DNA of 64,000 bases from Alphaproteobacteria bacterium. Its GTDB lineage: Bacteria; Pseudomonadota; Alphaproteobacteria; Rs-D84. The position numbers were made by a program, and so were the translations under genes. The stretch lies in the NCBI GenBank assembly GCA_017436325.1, contig JAFSDI010000002.1, forward strand, positions 35,457 to 99,456, read 5' to 3'. Of this stretch, positions 2,592-63,962 are shown one piece after another (within the stretch, counting starts at the first letter, position 1; each line of letters starts with the position of its first letter). Under the pieces are notes generated by a model. It did no database searches. It worked only from the letters and a program-made list of their open reading frames with translations, and was not told where the DNA came from.

Positions 2592-4895
2592 TTATTTATC
2601 CCTAATACGGGCATTACATTTATTTTCAACCACATTAATTATATTCGTCTGTAATTCTTGTAATGCGACATCAGACATATTATCTGTTGGTTGTATTGTT
2701 ATTGTAAATGCGATTGATTTTTGTCCATCACCCATATCAAAAGCATCAAACACAACTATATTTGTTATACGATTATCAACAGACTTTGCAACAGATATTA
2801 ATTTATCTGCAGGCATATCAGAATCTGTGATAAATGCAAAATCGCGTGTGATTGGTTGATATTCAGACAAAGTGATATTTTTTGTATATTTTGCTTTTGG
2901 TATATTTAAAATATTATCAACAATTGCAATAACGACATTATTTTTTATATGCATTTTTTTTGCGACTGATGGGTGTAATTGTCCGAATTCTGCAATTTTC
3001 TTTTTACCTTGCATCAGTGCACCATATCGATATGGGTGCGCCCACAACGGTGTATTTTCTGTTGATATTGTAAAATTCTGACCTTTAAACAAAGAAATCA
3101 AGTCTGCTTTTACATCATAAATATCTATATCGCGATTACGTTTTGACCAATGGCGTGGTGCGTTCAAACCGCTGCGAACAATACATACAGATGTATGTTG
3201 TTGTTTTGGCATACTGCCATCGAATACTGTTCCTAATTCAAACAATGCCAGATTTGGATAACCGCGTTTTTCGTTATTAGAAACCGCAGTTAACAAACCA
3301 TACAGTAATCCATTACGCAATGTATCAAGGTCGGCGGTAATTGGATTAGCAATTTTTACAATTTCTTTATCGGACAAGATTTGTTCAATCTTTGAATTAC
3401 CGAATCCAAAAGAACGACACTCATTCAATCCGCGTGCCACCAACGTATGCTTAATATTTATTTCGTGTTCATTATGCGGGCGTGCAGTACCAGTTGTATG
3501 TTTACAAGATGTTGCTATATTTTCATATCCATAAATACGAATTAAATCTGCGACAATTGTTTCTGGTATTTTCACATCAACACGTGCGGGCATTGGTACA
3601 ACAACCCAGTCTTTATTTTTATAGTCGACTTGATACCCCAGTGCAACAAGAATATCACGTTGTATATCTTGTGCGATATCGATACCTGTTTTTTTCATAC
3701 ATAAATCAGGATTATATTTTAAAACGGTACTTGCAGTAATATCTGTACCGGCTGCAAAAGCAGATGTAACAACACCACCGCATTGTGCAGTAATAATATC
3801 CAATGCATACATTGCGGCATACCCTGTCATTGTTGGGTCAATACCGCGTTCATATCTGTATGATGCATCTGTTGATAACCCCAGTCTTTTTGCGGATTTG
3901 CGGACAGAAACAGGGTCAAAATAAGCAGATTCTAAAATAATATTTTTAGTTTTTTCTGTTGTTGCAGCGCGTGCGCCACCAATAACACCGGCCAGTGCCA
4001 GTATACCTGTTTCATCAGCAATGACCATATCGTTTTCTGTTAAAGTATGTTCATTACCAAACAAGTCTGTAAATTTTTCATCAGGCTCTGCCATACGAAC
4101 GATAATATTGCCATTTACTTCATCTGCATCAAAACAATGCATTGGTTGTCCTATATCAAAGCAAACATAATTTGTCGCATCAATTGGTGCATTCTTAGGA
4201 TTAATACCGATTGCTTTCAGTCGTGATGCGATTTTTAAATTACTTGGATTAATGGTTATATTACGAAGTTCTATCATTTTATAAGTTGGGCATTTATCTG
4301 TTTGCAATATAACATGACGTGAACCATCCACAGGAATAAATTCTTTGTCTGTATGTTCAATATATTGCCCAATACCAGTTGCAGATAAATCACGTGCGAT
4401 ACCACGTACTGCCAAATAATCAGGACGATTTGGTGTGATTCCCGCATCAAAAACAATCTTAGAATTAACAACATCGGAACCGATTTTGGTATTTTCAGGC
4501 AATTCTATAATACCACTGTGGTCATCACTAATCCCCAGTTCACGTGCGCTGCACATCATACCATCAGACAAAACGCCACGCAATTTACCCGAAGTAATTT
4601 CATTTCCATCTATGATACAACCTGGGGTTGCCAGTGCAGAAATTAAACCGACACGTGCATTTGGTGCGCCACATACGACCTGACGCAGTACACCTGTACC
4701 ATCATCGACACGTAAAACGTGCAGATGGTCGCTATTTTCGTGTGGTGTGCATTCTACAATACGCGCTGCAACTGGTGATTTTGGGGATTGTAAATCTTCA
4801 ACTTCTAAACCTATACGTGTCAGTGTATTTGCAATATCGTCTGCAGATGCATTTGTTTTTAAATATTCCATTAACCAATCATAAGTCCATTTCAT
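2592..4895 (-). CDS. pheT: Phenylalanine--tRNA ligase beta subunit.
   Basis: 767 aa. It has a tRNA-binding N-terminus, B3/4 and B5 domains and a C-terminal anticodon-binding domain. It lies directly downstream of pheS. Confidence 0.9.
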   Translation of the reverse strand: MKWTYDWLMEYLKTNASADDIANTLTRIGLEVEDLQSPKSPVAARIVECTPHENSDHLHVLRVDDGTGVLRQVVCGAPNARVGLISALATPGCIIDGNEITSGKLRGVLSDGMMCSARELGISDDHSGIIELPENTKIGSDVVNSKIVFDAGITPNRPDYLAVRGIARDLSATGIGQYIEHTDKEFIPVDGSRHVILQTDKCPTYKMIELRNITINPSNLKIASRLKAIGINPKNAPIDATNYVCFDIGQPMHCFDADEVNGNIIVRMAEPDEKFTDLFGNEHTLTENDMVIADETGILALAGVIGGARAATTEKTKNIILESAYFDPVSVRKSAKRLGLSTDASYRYERGIDPTMTGYAAMYALDIITAQCGGVVTSAFAAGTDITASTVLKYNPDLCMKKTGIDIAQDIQRDILVALGYQVDYKNKDWVVVPMPARVDVKIPETIVADLIRIYGYENIATSCKHTTGTARPHNEHEINIKHTLVARGLNECRSFGFGNSKIEQILSDKEIVKIANPITADLDTLRNGLLYGLLTAVSNNEKRGYPNLALFELGTVFDGSMPKQQHTSVCIVRSGLNAPRHWSKRNRDIDIYDVKADLISLFKGQNFTISTENTPLWAHPYRYGALMQGKKKIAEFGQLHPSVAKKMHIKNNVVIAIVDNILNIPKAKYTKNITLSEYQPITRDFAFITDSDMPADKLISVAKSVDNRITNIVVFDAFDMGDGQKSIAFTITIQPTDNMSDVALQELQTNIINVVENKCNARIRDK

Positions 4896-6335: not shown

Positions 6336-6539
6336 TTATTTCAAACCATATGGGGCCAGAATTTTTGCCTGTCCAACCATATTATCATTTAAATATTGTG
6401 GCTTTGCACCTGCCTTGTTTGCACGGGCAGATTTTTTGCGAAGCAGTTTTTTATGAGAGTTGCGGGCAACACGAATTTTGCCAGTCGCAGTCATAGACGC
6501 ACGCTTTTTTAAGTACGACTTTGTTTTTAATTTTGGCAT
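6336..6539 (-). CDS. rpmI: 50S ribosomal protein L35.
   Basis: MPKLKTKS.... The start was moved to the internal Met, because the ORF-track extension overlaps mreC. No infC lies upstream. Confidence 0.85.
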   Translation of the reverse strand: MPKLKTKSYLKKRASMTATGKIRVARNSHKKLLRKKSARANKAGAKPQYLNDNMVGQAKILAPYGLK

Positions 6540-6661
6540 TTTATTTCCTTTTGATTTTATTGTTTTTTTTACATCTGATGGCAATGCCTGCCACTTTGAC
6601 TGACTTTTATTTTGACATAAATAAAGGAAAAATCAAGTTTTTATTGAATATCTATGTTTTT

Positions 6662-7504
6662 ATGTCTAAAGTATGCGCGATGAAACAGACCAAAACATCT
6701 TCCAAGGTATATCCATTAATACGTGCTGTTGCGACTGCATCGGTATTGCCTGTATTATTTATATACATTATGATTGCAAAGCCTGATTACAGAATTATGA
6801 ATGCGTTGGCACATATTGTTATTCCTGTTGCGCATACGATTGGTGATATTGTTACATGGCCAATACGTGCGGTTGGTCGCGCAATTGATAGTGTGGCAGA
6901 AATTTCGAATTTACGCAGTGAAAATGAAGAATTACGCATCAGGCTGGAACAGGCTTTATCTGATAAAGCAATGTGTGATGTTGTGATTTTAGAAAATAAA
7001 AAGTTAAATCGTGAACTTGATGTAAAAAATGCCCAGCCACGTGATGTGGTAATTGCGGACATTATTCATGATAACAGTGCGATTGGTCATAATACATTTA
7101 TTATCAATCGTGGTGTCAAAGATGGCATAGAAACTGGTATGGTTGTTGCGAATACAGATATGATAATGGCGGGTGTTGTTATTGATGTTGGTACAAATTT
7201 TTCACGGGTGCGCGCATTGACGGATTCTGATACTAATATTGCGGTTCGTGTTGTTGGGTCAGAGGTTTATGGTTTTATGACCGGCAATGGTTCGCGTTAT
7301 CCAACGATGGGTTTTTTTAGTGATCCAAAATTTCAACCAACCAAAGGTTTAAAATTAATAACCAGTAATATTTCTGGGGTATTACCTGCGGGCTTAATTG
7401 TTGGTGATATGATAGATGAAACAGATGTTAACGTTGTATCACCTGGTCAATTATCGCGTGTTATGGTACTAAAATTTGATACAACAGAAAACGAATATAA
7501 ATGA
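6662..7504 (+). CDS. mreC: Rod shape-determining protein MreC.
   Basis: An N-terminal transmembrane segment and a coiled coil (LRSENEELRIRLE) are followed by a beta-domain ending GVLPAGLIVGDM. The start was chosen at an internal ATG (6662, or possibly 6680) and is uncertain. Confidence 0.75.
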   Translation: MSKVCAMKQTKTSSKVYPLIRAVATASVLPVLFIYIMIAKPDYRIMNALAHIVIPVAHTIGDIVTWPIRAVGRAIDSVAEISNLRSENEELRIRLEQALSDKAMCDVVILENKKLNRELDVKNAQPRDVVIADIIHDNSAIGHNTFIINRGVKDGIETGMVVANTDMIMAGVVIDVGTNFSRVRALTDSDTNIAVRVVGSEVYGFMTGNGSRYPTMGFFSDPKFQPTKGLKLITSNISGVLPAGLIVGDMIDETDVNVVSPGQLSRVMVLKFDTTENEYK

Positions 7505-28954: not shown

Positions 28955-29115
28955 GCAAAACAGGGTGGTTGGAGGTTAGAACTTTGCACAACAGTATGCT
29001 CAGCGGTTATTCAATATATTTACCGCCCTCCAACCATTTGTTGGAGCGATTAACGTCTGCGCAGACGGCTATCGCGAGAGTTCTAATCTCGCATAATGGG
29101 TTCCCCATTACAATC
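28955..29115 (+). ncRNA. Candidate structured RNA or leader. It contains several hairpins with competing stems: GGTTGGAGG, CCTCCAACC and GTTGGAG.
   Basis: It has the perfect palindrome CGTCTGCGCAGACG, the stem GCGAGAG..TCTCGC and the stem AATGGG-TTC-CCCATT. It contains no convincing coding sequence. Confidence 0.3.
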
Positions 29116-54725: not shown

Positions 54726-54853
54726 TTTAACAAGAAAATATACCCAATTAGTATTTTTGCTTTCTTCTTGCGTTAATGTATTAAAATTGGCAAAATAATA
54801 TCAGGTTCTTGATAGTCTTAGGGAACCATAACCAGCATAGGAAAGGATACAAT

Positions 54854-55195
54854 ATGCGTCAAGGAAAAGTAAAATGGTACAATGGTAAAAAATGTTTTGG
54901 CTTTATCAGCCCTGACACACCAAACGAAGACGGCAACACAGATGATGTATTTGTTCATTCAAGTTCTTTAAAGGCCGCCGGCATCAGATTTTTGAACGAA
55001 AATGATATTGTTGAATTCGAAGATGAGGTTCGCAATGACAAATTATCTGTCACGACTATCAATCTTATTCAACGTGATGAAGAGGCTGCACGCCAATTCC
55101 AAGAACGCCGTGCAGAACGTCGTCGTGCAATCGAAGAACGTAAACAACGCAAGGAGAAATCATCGCGTCGTGGTTTTGCATTCTGGAAAAAATAA
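54854..55195 (+). CDS. Cold-shock domain protein with a 45-aa Arg/Glu/Lys-rich C-terminal tail.
   Basis: GKVKWYNGKKCFGFI is followed by the tail ...RAERRRAIEERKQRKEKSSRRGFAFWKK. Confidence 0.8.
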   Translation: MRQGKVKWYNGKKCFGFISPDTPNEDGNTDDVFVHSSSLKAAGIRFLNENDIVEFEDEVRNDKLSVTTINLIQRDEEAARQFQERRAERRRAIEERKQRKEKSSRRGFAFWKK

Positions 55196-55197
55196 AA

Positions 55198-55228
55198 TAA
55201 AAAAGCCGGCATTTGCCGGTTTTTTTGT
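55198..55228. terminator. Hairpin terminator AAAAAGCCGGCATTTGCCGGTTTTTTT.
   Basis: A member of the ACCGG..TTTACCGG hairpin family. Confidence 0.6.
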
Positions 55229-55335
55229 GTTTTTTTTATATTAATTTCATATTTTCAGATATTGATATTGTATTTTACTTATACGGCAAAAATATTTTTT
55301 ATATTTACAAAAAATCATAAACTATGTTATAATTC

Positions 55336-55606
55336 ACAATGAACTGGGTGGGAATCTGGTTCGGGGCTGTCGTAGGCCTTATGACTTCCGGTGCAAATAT
55401 ATGTGTGCATATATTAAGTGTCGTTATTCCGACAAAATATTCCCTGTATTTGCACTGTAATTTTGATAAACCCTGACTTTTTTGTCGGGGGGCTGTTCGC
55501 TATACAACAGGTGAATTCACCAAAGGCGAACAGGGTCATTGAAGTCATGATTTACGAACTCCCCGACCGCAGGATTTTTCACTGCGGTTTTTGTTTTAAT
55601 CAAAGG
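55336..55606 (+). promoter_or_regulatory. Conserved structured 5' leader (copy 2), ending in an intrinsic terminator (ACCGCAGGATTTTTCACTGCGGTTTTTGTTTT), upstream of secreted paralog 2.
   Basis: See the entry at 421-700. The long-range stem is CTGTTCGC..GCGAACAG, with sub-hairpins GGTGAATTCACC and AATATATGTGTGCATATATT. Confidence 0.6.
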
Positions 55607-55616
55607 AGTTTATAAA

Positions 55617-56201
55617 ATGAAAAAGCTATTAATTAGCACGATATTGGGGGGTGTACTTACCTGCCCTGCCCTTGCATCAATTGTGTCACGTGGTTTTTTA
55701 GAAGAAACGCTTGATTCCTATGCGACTTTTTCAGCGGTGAATTCTCGTTTTGGGGCTTGGCGGCAAGGCGGGTCTGTTTATGGATTCGCGTCGGGATCTG
55801 ATGGTTATGCGGATACTTTTCTATCTCTTCTTTCTGCAAATGGCCTACGTAGTGTTTATCCGGTTTCTTTGGCTGAAATGATATATGCTTTATATGGTAC
55901 AGATAAAGAAAAAGGGTTGATATCATCAATATTTTCTGGCTGGTCTAATGATGGACGTTATTATCGTGGATTATTTCAAATAGATTCTGATTTAAGTACA
56001 TTGACTGATAGAGTTATATTAAATAGAGAAGAAATATCAGCGCTTAATGCAAAAATTGACGGCAAAATAAATAATTTATCAACAACTGCCAGTAACGGAA
56101 AGTATGTTTTAACAGCGGTCAAGGAAGGCGACCAGACTACTTATGCCTGGGAACCAATTGACCGTTCTGAAACAGAAAGCGCAATCCCCACAGATGAATA
56201 A
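55617..56201 (+). CDS. Secreted protein, paralog 2 of the family (194 aa).
   Basis: The signal peptide is followed by ASIVSRGFLEETL. The C-terminus GKYVLTAVKEGDQTTYAWEPIDRSE is shared with paralog 3. Confidence 0.7.
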   Translation: MKKLLISTILGGVLTCPALASIVSRGFLEETLDSYATFSAVNSRFGAWRQGGSVYGFASGSDGYADTFLSLLSANGLRSVYPVSLAEMIYALYGTDKEKGLISSIFSGWSNDGRYYRGLFQIDSDLSTLTDRVILNREEISALNAKIDGKINNLSTTASNGKYVLTAVKEGDQTTYAWEPIDRSETESAIPTDE

Positions 56202-62397: not shown

Positions 62398-62469
62398 TGG
62401 AAACGTATACTACACAAAATAATATGTCTGTCAATATGTTTTTTTATAAATTTTTTTAGATTTACAAAA

Positions 62470-62786
62470 AAATAAAATCTGTGTTATAATAGAGGATGAA
62501 ATCGCAGGGATGCGCTTTCGGGGCCTTAGAAAAGCCTATCTACAATCCATATGATAAGAATCATATTGGAAATCCGTGCATTAATGGCGCGGTATTGCGC
62601 TATTTTTTGTACCCATAACCCCAAAGGCAATGTTTTTTTGTCGGGGTGCCATCGGTTATACCACAGGGGCTATTGGCCCCAAAGGCCGATGGGATCGGTA
62701 TTGTAGACGATTTTTCTAACACCCCGACCGCCAAAATCCTGTGGCGGTTTTTTAGTTTAACGCACGGAACCAAAGGGGCAACGAAA
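62470..62786 (+). promoter_or_regulatory. Conserved structured 5' leader (copy 3, more diverged), with an intrinsic terminator (CCGACCGCCAAAATCCTGTGGCGGTTTTTT), upstream of secreted paralog 3.
   Basis: It shares GG.TG..AATC..., TTGTCGGGG, a palindromic ATATGAT..ATCATAT element and the terminator architecture with leaders 1 and 2. Confidence 0.5.
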
Positions 62787-63962
62787 ATGAAAAGACTCTT
62801 AACCGCTGGCATATTCGGCACGATATTGGGAATTGTTGGCGCAGGCACTGCAAACGCATCAATCGTATCAAGCGGATTTTTAGACGAAAAATTAACAGAA
62901 TACGCACTCAGCACATCACTAGACCTGAAAGCAAACCAAAGTGACCTAACCGCATTAAATGATATTGTTGGAATAAAAAACTGGAATCTTGTTTTAAATT
63001 TAAAACTTGGGGAATTTCCACATTTATCTGAATTATTTCCAAATTTAGTACCAGACAAAGGAATGCCCTTCGCAGATATATCAAACTATATAATTGGTGA
63101 TTTAACATATATCAGCGGCCCAAGTCTTGCCGGTGTGACGGATAAGTTATTAAATGGTTGGACAAATTCTGATGGTGAAACATATCTTGGTCTAAAAGAT
63201 ATAAATACCAAAATCGGCAACCTGCCAAGTGGGGATTTTCCTGAATTTCCAGGATATGAGCATCTCTCTTATATTGGACAACCGCTTACATATCCAACAA
63301 GTTTAGCAGAATTAATTACTGCACTATACGGCAACTTAGAAACTGACTCACGAGGATTATTGTCAGGTATTATTACGGGCTTTCCATTAAATGGTAACCC
63401 TGATGAGTCTGTAGGCCTAATGCCAAACTTTTGGCTTGCGAATGAAGCAAACTATCTTGCCAACGCAAATGCCACTAAAATCGGTACCGTACCTTCTGGA
63501 AAAAATCTTGCAGGTATGATAAGTGAAACCGATGCCAAAATCGGTGTTTTACCACCAGACACAACAGTTACTGGTATGATGGGGAACCCTGTTTTGTTAC
63601 ATTATGAACAGAATATAATACCATTATATGACCTTATTCTTTTTGGCAGTAAAGGGCTAATAGTAGCTAATCCAATAACCGGGGCCATCATACCATTTCC
63701 ATTATTGGGCTTGCATGATATTACTGCTAAAGTTAATAAAATCGGTGACCTGCCAACAGAATATGCGACTGTTGGGGCGGCGCTGACCGCGATTAAGGGC
63801 ATTGCCGAAGATGCCAAGGCTGCGGCACTGGCGGCAATCCCAGACCCTAAGCAAGAGGGTTCAAGCGGTAAATTTGTCTTAACTGTTGATATTGTTGGCG
63901 ATAATGCGACCTATCACTGGGAAAAGATAGATCGCGAGGGCGAAACTACCACTACCGAATAA
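62787..63962 (+). CDS. Secreted protein, paralog 3 (391 aa), with internal KIG.LP repeats.
   Basis: The signal peptide is followed by ASIVSSGFLDEKL. The repeats are TKIGNLPSG, TKIGTVPSG, AKIGVLPPD and NKIGDLPTE. The C-terminus is GKFVLTVDIVGDNATYHWEKIDREGE. Confidence 0.7.
   Translation: MKRLLTAGIFGTILGIVGAGTANASIVSSGFLDEKLTEYALSTSLDLKANQSDLTALNDIVGIKNWNLVLNLKLGEFPHLSELFPNLVPDKGMPFADISNYIIGDLTYISGPSLAGVTDKLLNGWTNSDGETYLGLKDINTKIGNLPSGDFPEFPGYEHLSYIGQPLTYPTSLAELITALYGNLETDSRGLLSGIITGFPLNGNPDESVGLMPNFWLANEANYLANANATKIGTVPSGKNLAGMISETDAKIGVLPPDTTVTGMMGNPVLLHYEQNIIPLYDLILFGSKGLIVANPITGAIIPFPLLGLHDITAKVNKIGDLPTEYATVGAALTAIKGIAEDAKAAALAAIPDPKQEGSSGKFVLTVDIVGDNATYHWEKIDREGETTTTE

Follow-up and report, generated by a model that had tools for sequence, protein, structure and literature searches.

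What is the role of a non-coding leader that recurs, better conserved than the coding DNA behind it, in front of several genes of an uncultured bacterium? The locus raising this question is a 64,000-nt stretch of an Alphaproteobacteria genome (lineage Rs-D84; GenBank assembly GCA_017436325.1, contig JAFSDI010000002.1, positions 35,457 to 99,456; hereafter the window), in which the original prediction, made from the letters alone, had listed homologous leaders ahead of three paralogous genes (reverse complement of ~421–700, 55336–55606 and 62470–62786). Comparison with about 200 homologues from gut and rumen Alphaproteobacteria metagenome-assembled genomes (MAGs) suggests this element to be a terminator/antiterminator leader, related to sRNA-Xcc1 and belonging to a family absent from Rfam at threshold. 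From covariation and modelled folds, we consider it probable that promoter and leader form a cis-acting module that controls the following gene by premature transcription termination.

The three leaders were recovered at the reverse complement of ~431–700, at 55336–55606 and at 62470–62786, and a three-way alignment located in each of them every element that had been named. A pattern joining two conserved blocks matched exactly these 3 sites in the window (0 expected). The count of three was nonetheless too low, as the window holds a fourth, divergent copy, and global alignment puts leaders 1 and 2 at 79% identity rather than about 85%. Leader 3 is indeed more diverged, with 57–58% identity to leaders 1 and 2. 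Over their first 408 nt, the coding regions are just 52–58% identical, compared with 57–79% for the leaders, which are thus better kept than the genes; the paralog proteins share 28–39% identity in local alignments. Minimum free energy (MFE) z-scores against dinucleotide shuffles were −6.07, −5.52 and −4.11 for leaders 1, 2 and 3, and, in line with the predicted intrinsic terminator, a hairpin plus U-run ends ~20 nt before AAGGAG and the ATG.

Fold and predicted terminator switch of the leader RNA

Read from its 5′ end, leader 2 (Table 1) comprises a terminal hairpin, a small hairpin (P2), a variable inner domain, segment 2 (seg2) and a three-way junction closed by helix P1, followed by the intrinsic terminator. 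Across the family, P1 is formed by seg3 GGUCGGGGAG with seg4 CUCCCCGACC, and the longer arm of the junction (P2a, P2b) carries a conserved internal loop, UAUACAACAG opposite AAAG. Two long-range (LR) helices tie the 5′ part to the junction: in LR1, the loop of the small hairpin pairs with the strand between P3 and seg4 (J3/1); in LR2, the 8–10 nt following that hairpin pair with the P3 loop. The LR2 strands are AUCUUGUU/AACAAGAU in leader 1 and UCUACAAU/AUUGUAGA in leader 3.

The proposed switch follows a 1:2 / 2:3 / 3:4 logic, its steps resting on covariation and energy calculations. Transcription would start at the base of the 5′ hairpin. In the growing RNA, seg2 (CCCUGAC) would pair locally with seg3 (GUCGGGG) as an anti-antiterminator, whereupon LR1 and LR2 would form as the small-hairpin loop and the linker pair with J3/1 and the P3 loop. 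In the ON state, seg4 (CUCCCCGACC) would displace seg2 and pair with seg3 as the 10-bp P1, the antiterminator; P1 would tie up GACC, leave ~4 bp for the terminator and let RNA polymerase read into the gene. In the OFF state, the seg2:seg3 hairpin would stay, GACC would join the 8-bp terminator stem GACCGCCN/NGGCGGUY with its U-run, and transcription would stop ~20 nt before the ribosome-binding site (RBS). Because seg4 and the terminator share 4 nt, P1 can be complete only next to a terminator of ~4 bp, and completing the terminator makes P1 shorter. We infer that the junction folded with LR1 and LR2 is the state stabilised or destabilised by a signal, with a small molecule, a protein and cues of a physical or kinetic kind as conceivable candidates.

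As far as sequence comparison can tell, the strongest evidence for such a switch is that its four strands change together. Types replaced jointly across the switch strands include GUCGGGG, GCCGGGG, GGUCGGGUAU, GGUUGGAGG, GGUCAGGAGG, GGCAGGAGA and GGUCAGGGUG, the last four being words of divergent subfamilies that each occur with a matching seg2, seg4 and terminator strand. Joint changes of seg2 and seg3 were seen in the homologous loci L162 (CCCCGG..CC / GGCCGGGG / CCCCGGCC / GGCGGCC), the L143 group (GCCUGGCC / GGUCGGGUAU / AUACCCGACC), L142 (CCCUAAC / GUUGGGG), L005, L046 and L072, and in the fourth copy of the window. In the latter, all four switching segments are coherently replaced (seg2 CUCCAAC, seg3 GGUUGGAGG, seg4 CCUCCAACC, terminator AACCACC/GGUGGUU plus U-run), LR1 reads UUAGAAC/GUUCUAA and the fold z-score is −4.26; covariance model R1, described below, reported it at 29036–28943(−) with 26.6 bits (E 2e-4, filters off).

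Since MAFFT could not align seg2, whose loop varies in length, we assessed this segment by duplex energy with shuffled controls. The duplex of the seg2-side stretch with seg3 reached −14.6 kcal/mol as compared to −9.4 kcal/mol for shuffled sequences and was the better one in 127 of 134 copies. The 8 bp of the family terminator stem were 95.8% paired, with compensatory changes present, and the four positions common to seg4 and the terminator (G-U/G-C, A-U, C-G, C-G) are paired in the terminator. When GACC was forced into either the terminator or P1, the two folds differed by a median of only 2.4 kcal/mol over 132 copies, the terminator state being favoured in 74% of them; the constrained fold pairs of the window copies were −46.8 vs −43.6, −42.6 vs −43.5 and −52.9 vs −53.3.

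Model R1 describes the 3′ domain only and detected 72 copies in metagenome and viral loci and 113 copies in genome loci plus the window. In the first set seg3 and seg4 were free to vary, as that set had been picked by its 5′ pattern. Over the 28 pairs of R1, 96.0% of positions were paired in alignment A3 (86.2% when shuffled; 22 of the 28 pairs compensatory) and 95.3% in alignment A4 (80.9% when shuffled; 26 of 28), counts that are biased towards the model, to which both alignments had been fitted. Partners slid out of register were only 30–51% paired, which argues that the pairing signal is real. The 3′ domain further contains many G-U pairs, which on the opposite strand would be C-A mismatches, pointing to the sense strand only as the one that folds.

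The 5′ hairpin gave a similar picture: its 8 pairs were 95.2% paired (82.8% shuffled), 7 of them with compensatory changes, and its U-G wobbles again fit only the sense strand. The RNA probably starts at the base of this hairpin. For the 6 pairs of LR1, 95.9% pairing compares with 69.8% after shuffling, and CG, GC, AU and UA are all common at the three central pairs. The combined LR1+LR2 duplex was worth −16.75 kcal/mol for cognate and −5.35 kcal/mol for non-cognate strands; in 121 of 126 leaders the cognate partner was better than all 20 random ones. Taken together, the conserved alternative pairings upstream of a terminator, which the original prediction had read from three copies, are borne out by compensatory changes in about 200 homologues, and every main helix has covariation support, that for the stem of the small hairpin P2 being weak.

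Two elements of the first description have to be revised. The CTGTTCGC..GCGAACAG pairing, taken for a long-range stem, is instead a local arm of the three-way junction. The AATATATG..CATATATT palindrome is present, but lies in the variable inner domain and does not extend to the whole family; that domain has at least two architectures family-wide, with leader 3 being of the other type (by reading). Three further pairings were considered for the 5′ region. On pairing of its GGGG with the CCCC of seg4, which closes the MFE fold as a "rod", covariation is uninformative because both strands are invariant. Pairing of the 5′ hairpin loop GGGA with UCCC of seg2 and pairing of the 5′ GGGG with seg2 were both dropped, since no matching change is seen in copies without GGGA or with another seg2 (by reading).

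LR2 is the fastest-changing part of the RNA: its loops are 52% identical where the rest of the 3′ domain is 90–95% identical. Copies in one genome or contig never share the LR1+LR2 combination (here termed barcode), and cross-pairing within genomes amounted to −5.3 kcal/mol, as compared to −16.8 kcal/mol for cognate pairs (50 ordered pairs). Identical barcodes do recur in different MAGs, before different genes. A search for trans partners of the barcodes within the window found nothing beyond chance. Relaxed constraint accounts for part of the LR2 variability; selection against cross-pairing of co-expressed leaders, or locus-specific action in trans, may also contribute. As a speculative and rather improbable extension, the LR helices might serve as address labels, with the terminated leader, or a processed Xcc1-like 3′ domain, pairing with nascent transcripts of its own locus and tipping their fold. 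Trans pairing only with the own locus could follow from each copy of a genome having a different LR1+LR2 pair. If true, this would give each surface, restriction–modification or glycosyltransferase gene its own RNA feedback or bistable ON/OFF switch, amounting to RNA-programmed phase variation in small-genome gut symbionts, and the same principle might work in phage and integron Xcc1 leaders.

A portable module and the genes behind it

The paralog protein has 154 relatives, all of them unnamed proteins of uncultured Alphaproteobacteria and several per MAG; Pfam returned no domain for the paralogs. Loci of relatives at 56%, 39% and 35% identity have the same leader. A DNA pattern for the 3′ part, searched with one genome per species, retrieved at least 113 stretches; among those listed, ~100 are true copies, from gut and rumen MAGs labelled Alphaproteobacteria, Candidatus Enterousia or Rickettsiales, and the remaining matches are chance ones in high-GC genomes. 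A pattern for the 5′ hairpin added 68 stretches from metagenomes, and a further 2 were obtained from IMG/VR contigs. Candidatus Enterousia is a member of the order Rs-D84, with reduced genomes (~0.75–1.6 Mb) from animal guts (PMC12306168). One typical copy (L042) lies on a contig labelled Bacteroides fragilis, probably mis-binned Alphaproteobacteria.

In 150 homologues, the spacing between promoter and 5′ hairpin is fixed, with a −35 box (T146 T131 G99), 17–18 nt and a TG-n-TAtAAT element whose −10 box has T146 and A150/150 at positions 1–2 and A127 at position 4; the TG precedes the −10 box in over half of the copies. The promoter of leader 2 has 11 of 12 consensus matches plus the TG. Downstream, 152 of 175 copies have a U-run after the terminator hairpin. 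The ATG comes a median of 45 nt (interquartile range 42–49) after the ..CCGC of seg4, leaving no room for a second promoter. With the promoter fixed upstream, and terminator and ATG fixed downstream, the copied unit is promoter, leader and terminator, a portable module.

The leader does not belong to the paralogs as such, as had been assumed: the gene behind it is usually not the paralog, and near-identical leaders precede unrelated genes in different MAGs. A same-strand open reading frame (ORF) begins after seg4 in 119 of 178 copies, and 72 of these 119 downstream proteins have a signal-like N-terminus by a crude rule. Most downstream genes encode signal-peptide, lipoprotein or membrane proteins of many unrelated kinds, including an autotransporter with Pmp repeats and proteins with YadA-type anchors; others encode methyltransferases (EcoRI-like, HsdM, C5, N6/N4), a UvrD-like helicase, GT2 and GT1-like glycosyltransferases, and small helix-turn-helix (HTH) proteins. 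As all of them carry the module, it would put dozens of unrelated accessory genes under common control.

The paralog family itself has a signal peptide, an N-terminal block (ASIVSxGFLDEKL..DLKANQSDLT), a C-terminal block (GKFVLT..Y.WE.IDR) and a highly variable middle; its members range from 194 to >600 aa, were found only in these MAGs and, judged by sequence, look like variable surface proteins. Upstream of the most distant paralog examined (32% identity; L005, 9800–10000), R1 reported nothing. By reading, this region has the small hairpin P2 (GGGU-CUAACUA-ACCC), LR1 (CUAACUA/UAGUUAG), LR2 (AAUACUUCGA/UCGAAGUAUU), seg3 GGUUGGAG and seg4 CUCCAACC followed by a terminator; as the plan is the same, the family is wider than R1 detects.

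Other surroundings of the leader vary. The 61-aa ORF after leader 4 matched no Pfam family; its N-terminus (MSIGQELEYIRKK) seems, by reading, to resemble XRE-type HTH proteins. On the IMG/VR contig L189 (225–5104), a leader follows an HTH gene (3449–3775) and a reverse-transcriptase-like gene (3772–4746; YVDD), with a large serine recombinase gene at 225–1844; the locus may be an integrative element or a defence locus. In locus L046 (~6350–6894), two full modules stand in tandem, each with its own promoter (3′ domains 6519–6629 and 6792–6894), and only the second adjoins a lipoprotein gene.

Table 1 Features of the leaders in the window and of sRNA-Xcc1 leaders with upstream partners (the latter in coordinates of their own loci)
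Feature	Position	Strand	Details
Leader 1	684–431	−	promoter −35 at 721–716, −10 at 697–692; 3′ domain 542–431; 94 bits
Leader 1 gene	starts 408	−	paralog; runs off the window
Leader 2 promoter	55304–55333	+	−35 TTTACA 55304–55309, 18-nt spacer, extended −10 TGtTATAAT, −10 at 55328–55333
Leader 2	55341–55597	+	RNA
5′ terminal hairpin	55341–55362	+	GAACUGG-GUGGGAAU-CUGGUUC
Small hairpin P2	55363–55379	+	GGGGCU/GGCCU; loop UCGUAG 55370–55375 is the LR1 5′ strand
LR1	55370–55375 with 55552–55557	+	small-hairpin loop with UUACGA (J3/1, between P3 and seg4)
LR2	55381–55388 with 55541–55548	+	AUGACUUC with GAAGUCAU in the P3 loop
Variable inner 5′ domain	55389–55470	+	AAUAUAUG..CAUAUAUU hairpin and GUCG-UUAUUC-CGAC
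seg2	55471–55477	+	CCCUGAC; pairs with seg3 in a local hairpin
Three-way junction	55484–55568	+	sRNA-Xcc1-like; model R1
P1	55484–55492 with 55559–55568	+	seg3 GUCGGGGGG with seg4 CUCCCCGAC(C)
Junction arm P2a	55493–55500 with 55526–55533	+	internal loop UAUACAACA
Junction arm P2b	55510–13 with 55518–21	+	
P3	55536–38 with 55548–50	+	UCA/UGA; loop is the LR2 3′ strand
Intrinsic terminator	55565–55597	+	GACCGCAG / CUGCGGU(U) + U-run; first four bases GACC are the end of seg4
Leader 2 RBS	55603–55608	+	AAGGAG
Leader 2 gene	55617–56201	+	paralog; 194 aa, signal peptide
Leader 3	62498–62754	+	promoter −35 at 62461–66, −10 at 62485–90; 3′ domain 62638–62754; 102.8 bits
Leader 3 gene	62787–63962	+	paralog
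Leader 4	~29112–28943	−	divergent subfamily; promoter TTGCAA-18-TATAAT (29148–29119)
ORF after leader 4	28917–28732	−	61 aa
Xcc1 leader, L190	1350–1570		
Xcc1 leader, L191	1370–1572		
Xcc1 leader, L192	1395–1580		
Xcc1 leader, L193	1100–1284		
Xcc1 leader, L194	1085–1294		

Relation to sRNA-Xcc1

The original prediction had stated that no known class matches, which is right at the level of Rfam gathering scores but too strong, as the leader has a distant relative in sRNA-Xcc1 (RF02221). At gathering threshold, Rfam models returned only tRNA and tmRNA from the window and 18 homologous loci, and neither T-box nor any other Rfam riboswitch matched the window leaders. With relaxed thresholds, RF02221 was the only model to give a meaningful match: it reported leader 2 at 31.1 bits (E 0.0016) and leader 3 at 28.0 bits (E 0.0078), below its gathering score of 53, and aligned over its full length (positions 1–87 of 87) to the junctions of both. 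For the reciprocal comparison we examined five true Xcc1 RNAs, from Neisseria gonorrhoeae, a Nitratidesulfovibrio plasmid, a Pseudomonas plasmid, E. coli phage P13374 and phage Aaphi23, three of which were confirmed at 69–73 bits; R1 matched all five at the same spot (51.1, 35.1, 24.0, 20.3 and 17.8 bits). BLAST of leader 2 against phage records gave no match. By curated score the window RNA is not a member of RF02221; going by these alignments, it most likely represents a remote and extended branch of the sRNA-Xcc1 superfamily.

Inspection of the five Xcc1 RNAs by eye revealed a small hairpin 80–130 nt before the Rfam core, with a loop complementary to J3/1, followed by a linker complementary to the P3 loop, i.e., the order of LR1 and LR2 (for instance UUGAAC/GUUCAA plus CACAAAGC/GCUUUGUG; positions in Table 1); this arrangement rests on five cases without a statistical test. 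RF02221 thus appears to describe just the 3′ part of a leader that is longer. In the Xcc1 leaders of phages and plasmids, the stretch from the long-range 5′ strands to the junction contains a conserved terminator-like hairpin, AGCGG..CCGC-(N)CCCG(A/U)CAGAC..GCGG + U7 (L191 ~1395–1432, L192 ~1418–1462, L193 ~1128–1168, L194 ~1106–1146), the loop of which resembles seg2.

sRNA-Xcc1 was first found in Xanthomonas campestris and has been annotated in integron cassettes, plasmids, Stx-type and APSE phages, Xylella and Neisseria. In the literature it lies upstream of symE in Xanthomonas integron cassettes and of an ORF6N gene in APSE phages; the Xcc1 RNAs examined here precede BRO, Ant, KilA-N and Q-like genes encoded on the same strand (bioRxiv 10.1101/2025.06.18.660453 for the same-strand position). 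On our comparison, sRNA-Xcc1 would turn out to be the 3′ part of an extended leader that acts in cis and has conserved partner sequences upstream, and its function would become testable in culturable hosts such as E. coli Stx phages, Neisseria, Pseudomonas and Xanthomonas.

Competing explanations and known systems

Several observations weigh against a switch acting in cis. With an overlap of just 4 nt, P1 and the terminator could be present in part at the same time, and the seg2:seg3 hairpin might do no more than assist folding during transcription. The stem of the small hairpin P2 is 81.2% paired in the MAFFT alignment, as compared to 79.8% after shuffling. The downstream gene set is mixed and indicates no single metabolite or pathway. 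By a crude rule, 59 of 178 copies have no ORF with ATG and RBS within 120 nt, and these, together with the tandem locus, suggest that some copies may act as free-standing RNAs. The 2011 report of Chen et al. is said to call sRNA-Xcc1 trans-acting in its title. Finally, sRNA-Xcc1 accumulates in Xanthomonas as an RNA of ~88–100 nt with mapped ends, according to RACE and Northern blot data (PMC2996969).

"Riboswitch or attenuator" had been the original assignment. A cis-acting attenuator-type RNA is well supported by the computations; a riboswitch, i.e., a sub-case of the cis-termination reading that overlaps with it, is hypothetical, since no metabolite is suggested by the mixed gene set. Under this sub-case, which we regard as possible though doubtful, the junction with its UAUACAACAG/AAAG loop and the long-range helices would form the predicted pocket for a small molecule, and ligand binding would favour P1 and hence read-through. 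Computationally, the leader has a covarying, structured domain in the 5′ untranslated region and a terminator competing with its closing stem, that is, a platform overlapping P1, and its two states are nearly equal in energy. The complex fold is deeply conserved, and its invariant unpaired nucleotides recur in sRNA-Xcc1 of other proteobacterial classes and phages, and the many copies per genome recall second-messenger riboswitches or T-boxes. Against a ligand speak the lack of a coherent metabolic gene association, a length of ~250 nt that is large for the class, and relatives in phages and integrons that lie upstream of anti-repressor, BRO and symE genes.

The signal might also be a protein. 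An antiterminator of the Q, NusG-paralog (LoaP/RfaH-like) or cold-shock type could recognise the leader fold and permit read-through, or RNA polymerase could be modified at the conserved promoter-proximal region; either variant, which we deem unlikely, would overlap with termination control in cis. With its surface, polysaccharide and foreign genes, the gene set behind the leader resembles the RfaH, UpxY and LoaP regulons, the promoter and initial transcribed sequence are strongly conserved, and in phage Aaphi23 a Q-like antiterminator gene immediately precedes the Xcc1-type leader, which is followed by ant and the holin gene. Directly upstream of leader 2 lies a gene for a cold-shock-domain protein with a basic C-terminal tail (54809–55225), which has a strong terminator of its own (55200–55225); cold-shock proteins can be antiterminators, and the adjacency may be coincidence. 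Processive antitermination would not, however, need the covarying competition among seg2, seg3, seg4 and terminator, and no candidate factor was identified.

More improbable still is that the ~250-nt terminated transcript is itself the product, a trans-acting sRNA, with downstream expression arising from terminator leak. The module does have its own strong promoter and terminator, the short Xanthomonas RNA mentioned above would fit, the first leader of the tandem locus has no gene directly behind it and one Neisseria Xcc1 copy is followed by a separate promoter. Yet most copies have an ORF 42–49 nt after seg4, without room for a promoter; a conserved single-stranded seed is lacking, intramolecular pairing takes up the most variable segments, and no complementary site was seen elsewhere in the window.

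That the conservation is a mere by-product of duplication, gene conversion or a promoter cassette resembling a miniature inverted-repeat transposable element (MITE), or reflects a single-stranded DNA fold like that of attC, is very improbable. The module is portable, with near-identical leaders before unrelated genes in different MAGs, and sRNA-Xcc1 relatives occur in integron cassettes; but pairing is retained through pervasive compensatory changes even where the sequence has been replaced entirely, and many G-U pairs would turn into C-A mismatches if the other strand folded. The constant order of promoter, fold, terminator, RBS and ORF on one strand also differs from what marks a MITE or repeat, and no terminal inverted repeats or target duplications were seen at the module (by reading). 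Attenuation by a leader peptide, with the fold set by translating a short ORF, can practically be dismissed: leader 2 has a 45-codon ORF from the ATG at 55340 (by reading), but the NTG at that position is ATG in only ~42% of copies, the median ORF is 22 codons, leader lengths are even over the three classes mod 3, and no RBS precedes the start.

If control by premature termination in cis is the right reading, as appears probable, the leader would add a large and structurally elaborate RNA family, which combines a three-way junction with two long-range helices and a three-tier terminator switch. Uncultured Rs-D84 bacteria, whose genomes are reduced, have many copies of it per genome (four in these 64 kb). 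The genes concerned, for adhesin-like surface proteins, restriction–modification methyltransferases and glycosyltransferases, are of the kinds that host-associated bacteria usually vary.

Among known systems, the predicted chain of mutually exclusive helices ending in a terminator just before the RBS is reminiscent of terminator/antiterminator attenuators (trp-type, T-box, riboswitches), and the closing stem of a structured upstream domain sharing bases with the terminator recalls a riboswitch platform. In contrast to trp-type and T-box attenuators, the leader has no leader peptide and no T-box match, the overlap is only 4 nt, and two long-range helices tie the 5′ domain to the junction.

A second parallel is the c4 antisense RNA system of the phage P1/P7 immI region (a1b1 - c4 - a2b2 - icd - ant). 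There, the leader RNA of an anti-repressor gene has two short, variable stretches that base-pair with two loops of a structured RNA, and specificity depends on the sequences of these stretches. Xcc1 relatives likewise lie upstream of ant and BRO genes. In Xylella, they are annotated next to C4 and isrK (PMC12189769). The window leaders differ in lacking an Rfam c4 match, in having an intrinsic terminator as output, and in that reading of the sequence at the RBS revealed no second, a2b2-like target. Type III toxin–antitoxin systems such as ToxIN share the gene order, i.e., promoter, structured RNA, terminator and protein gene, with the terminator between RNA and ORF. Their RNA consists of tandem 36-nt repeats, however, whereas the leader is a single, non-repetitive fold of ~250 nt, and the proteins downstream are unrelated and mostly secreted.

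The closest likeness is to sRNA-Xcc1, with which the leader shares the three-way junction, P1 (GGYCGGGG/CCCCGRCC), the P2 arm with its AUACAA internal loop, the P3 hairpin, upstream strands ordered as LR1 and LR2, and genes on the same strand behind. The window copies differ in adding a 5′ terminal hairpin, a large variable inner domain and a terminator overlapping P1, and in Rs-D84 they occur many times per chromosome, before surface, restriction–modification and glycosyltransferase genes rather than ant, BRO or symE.

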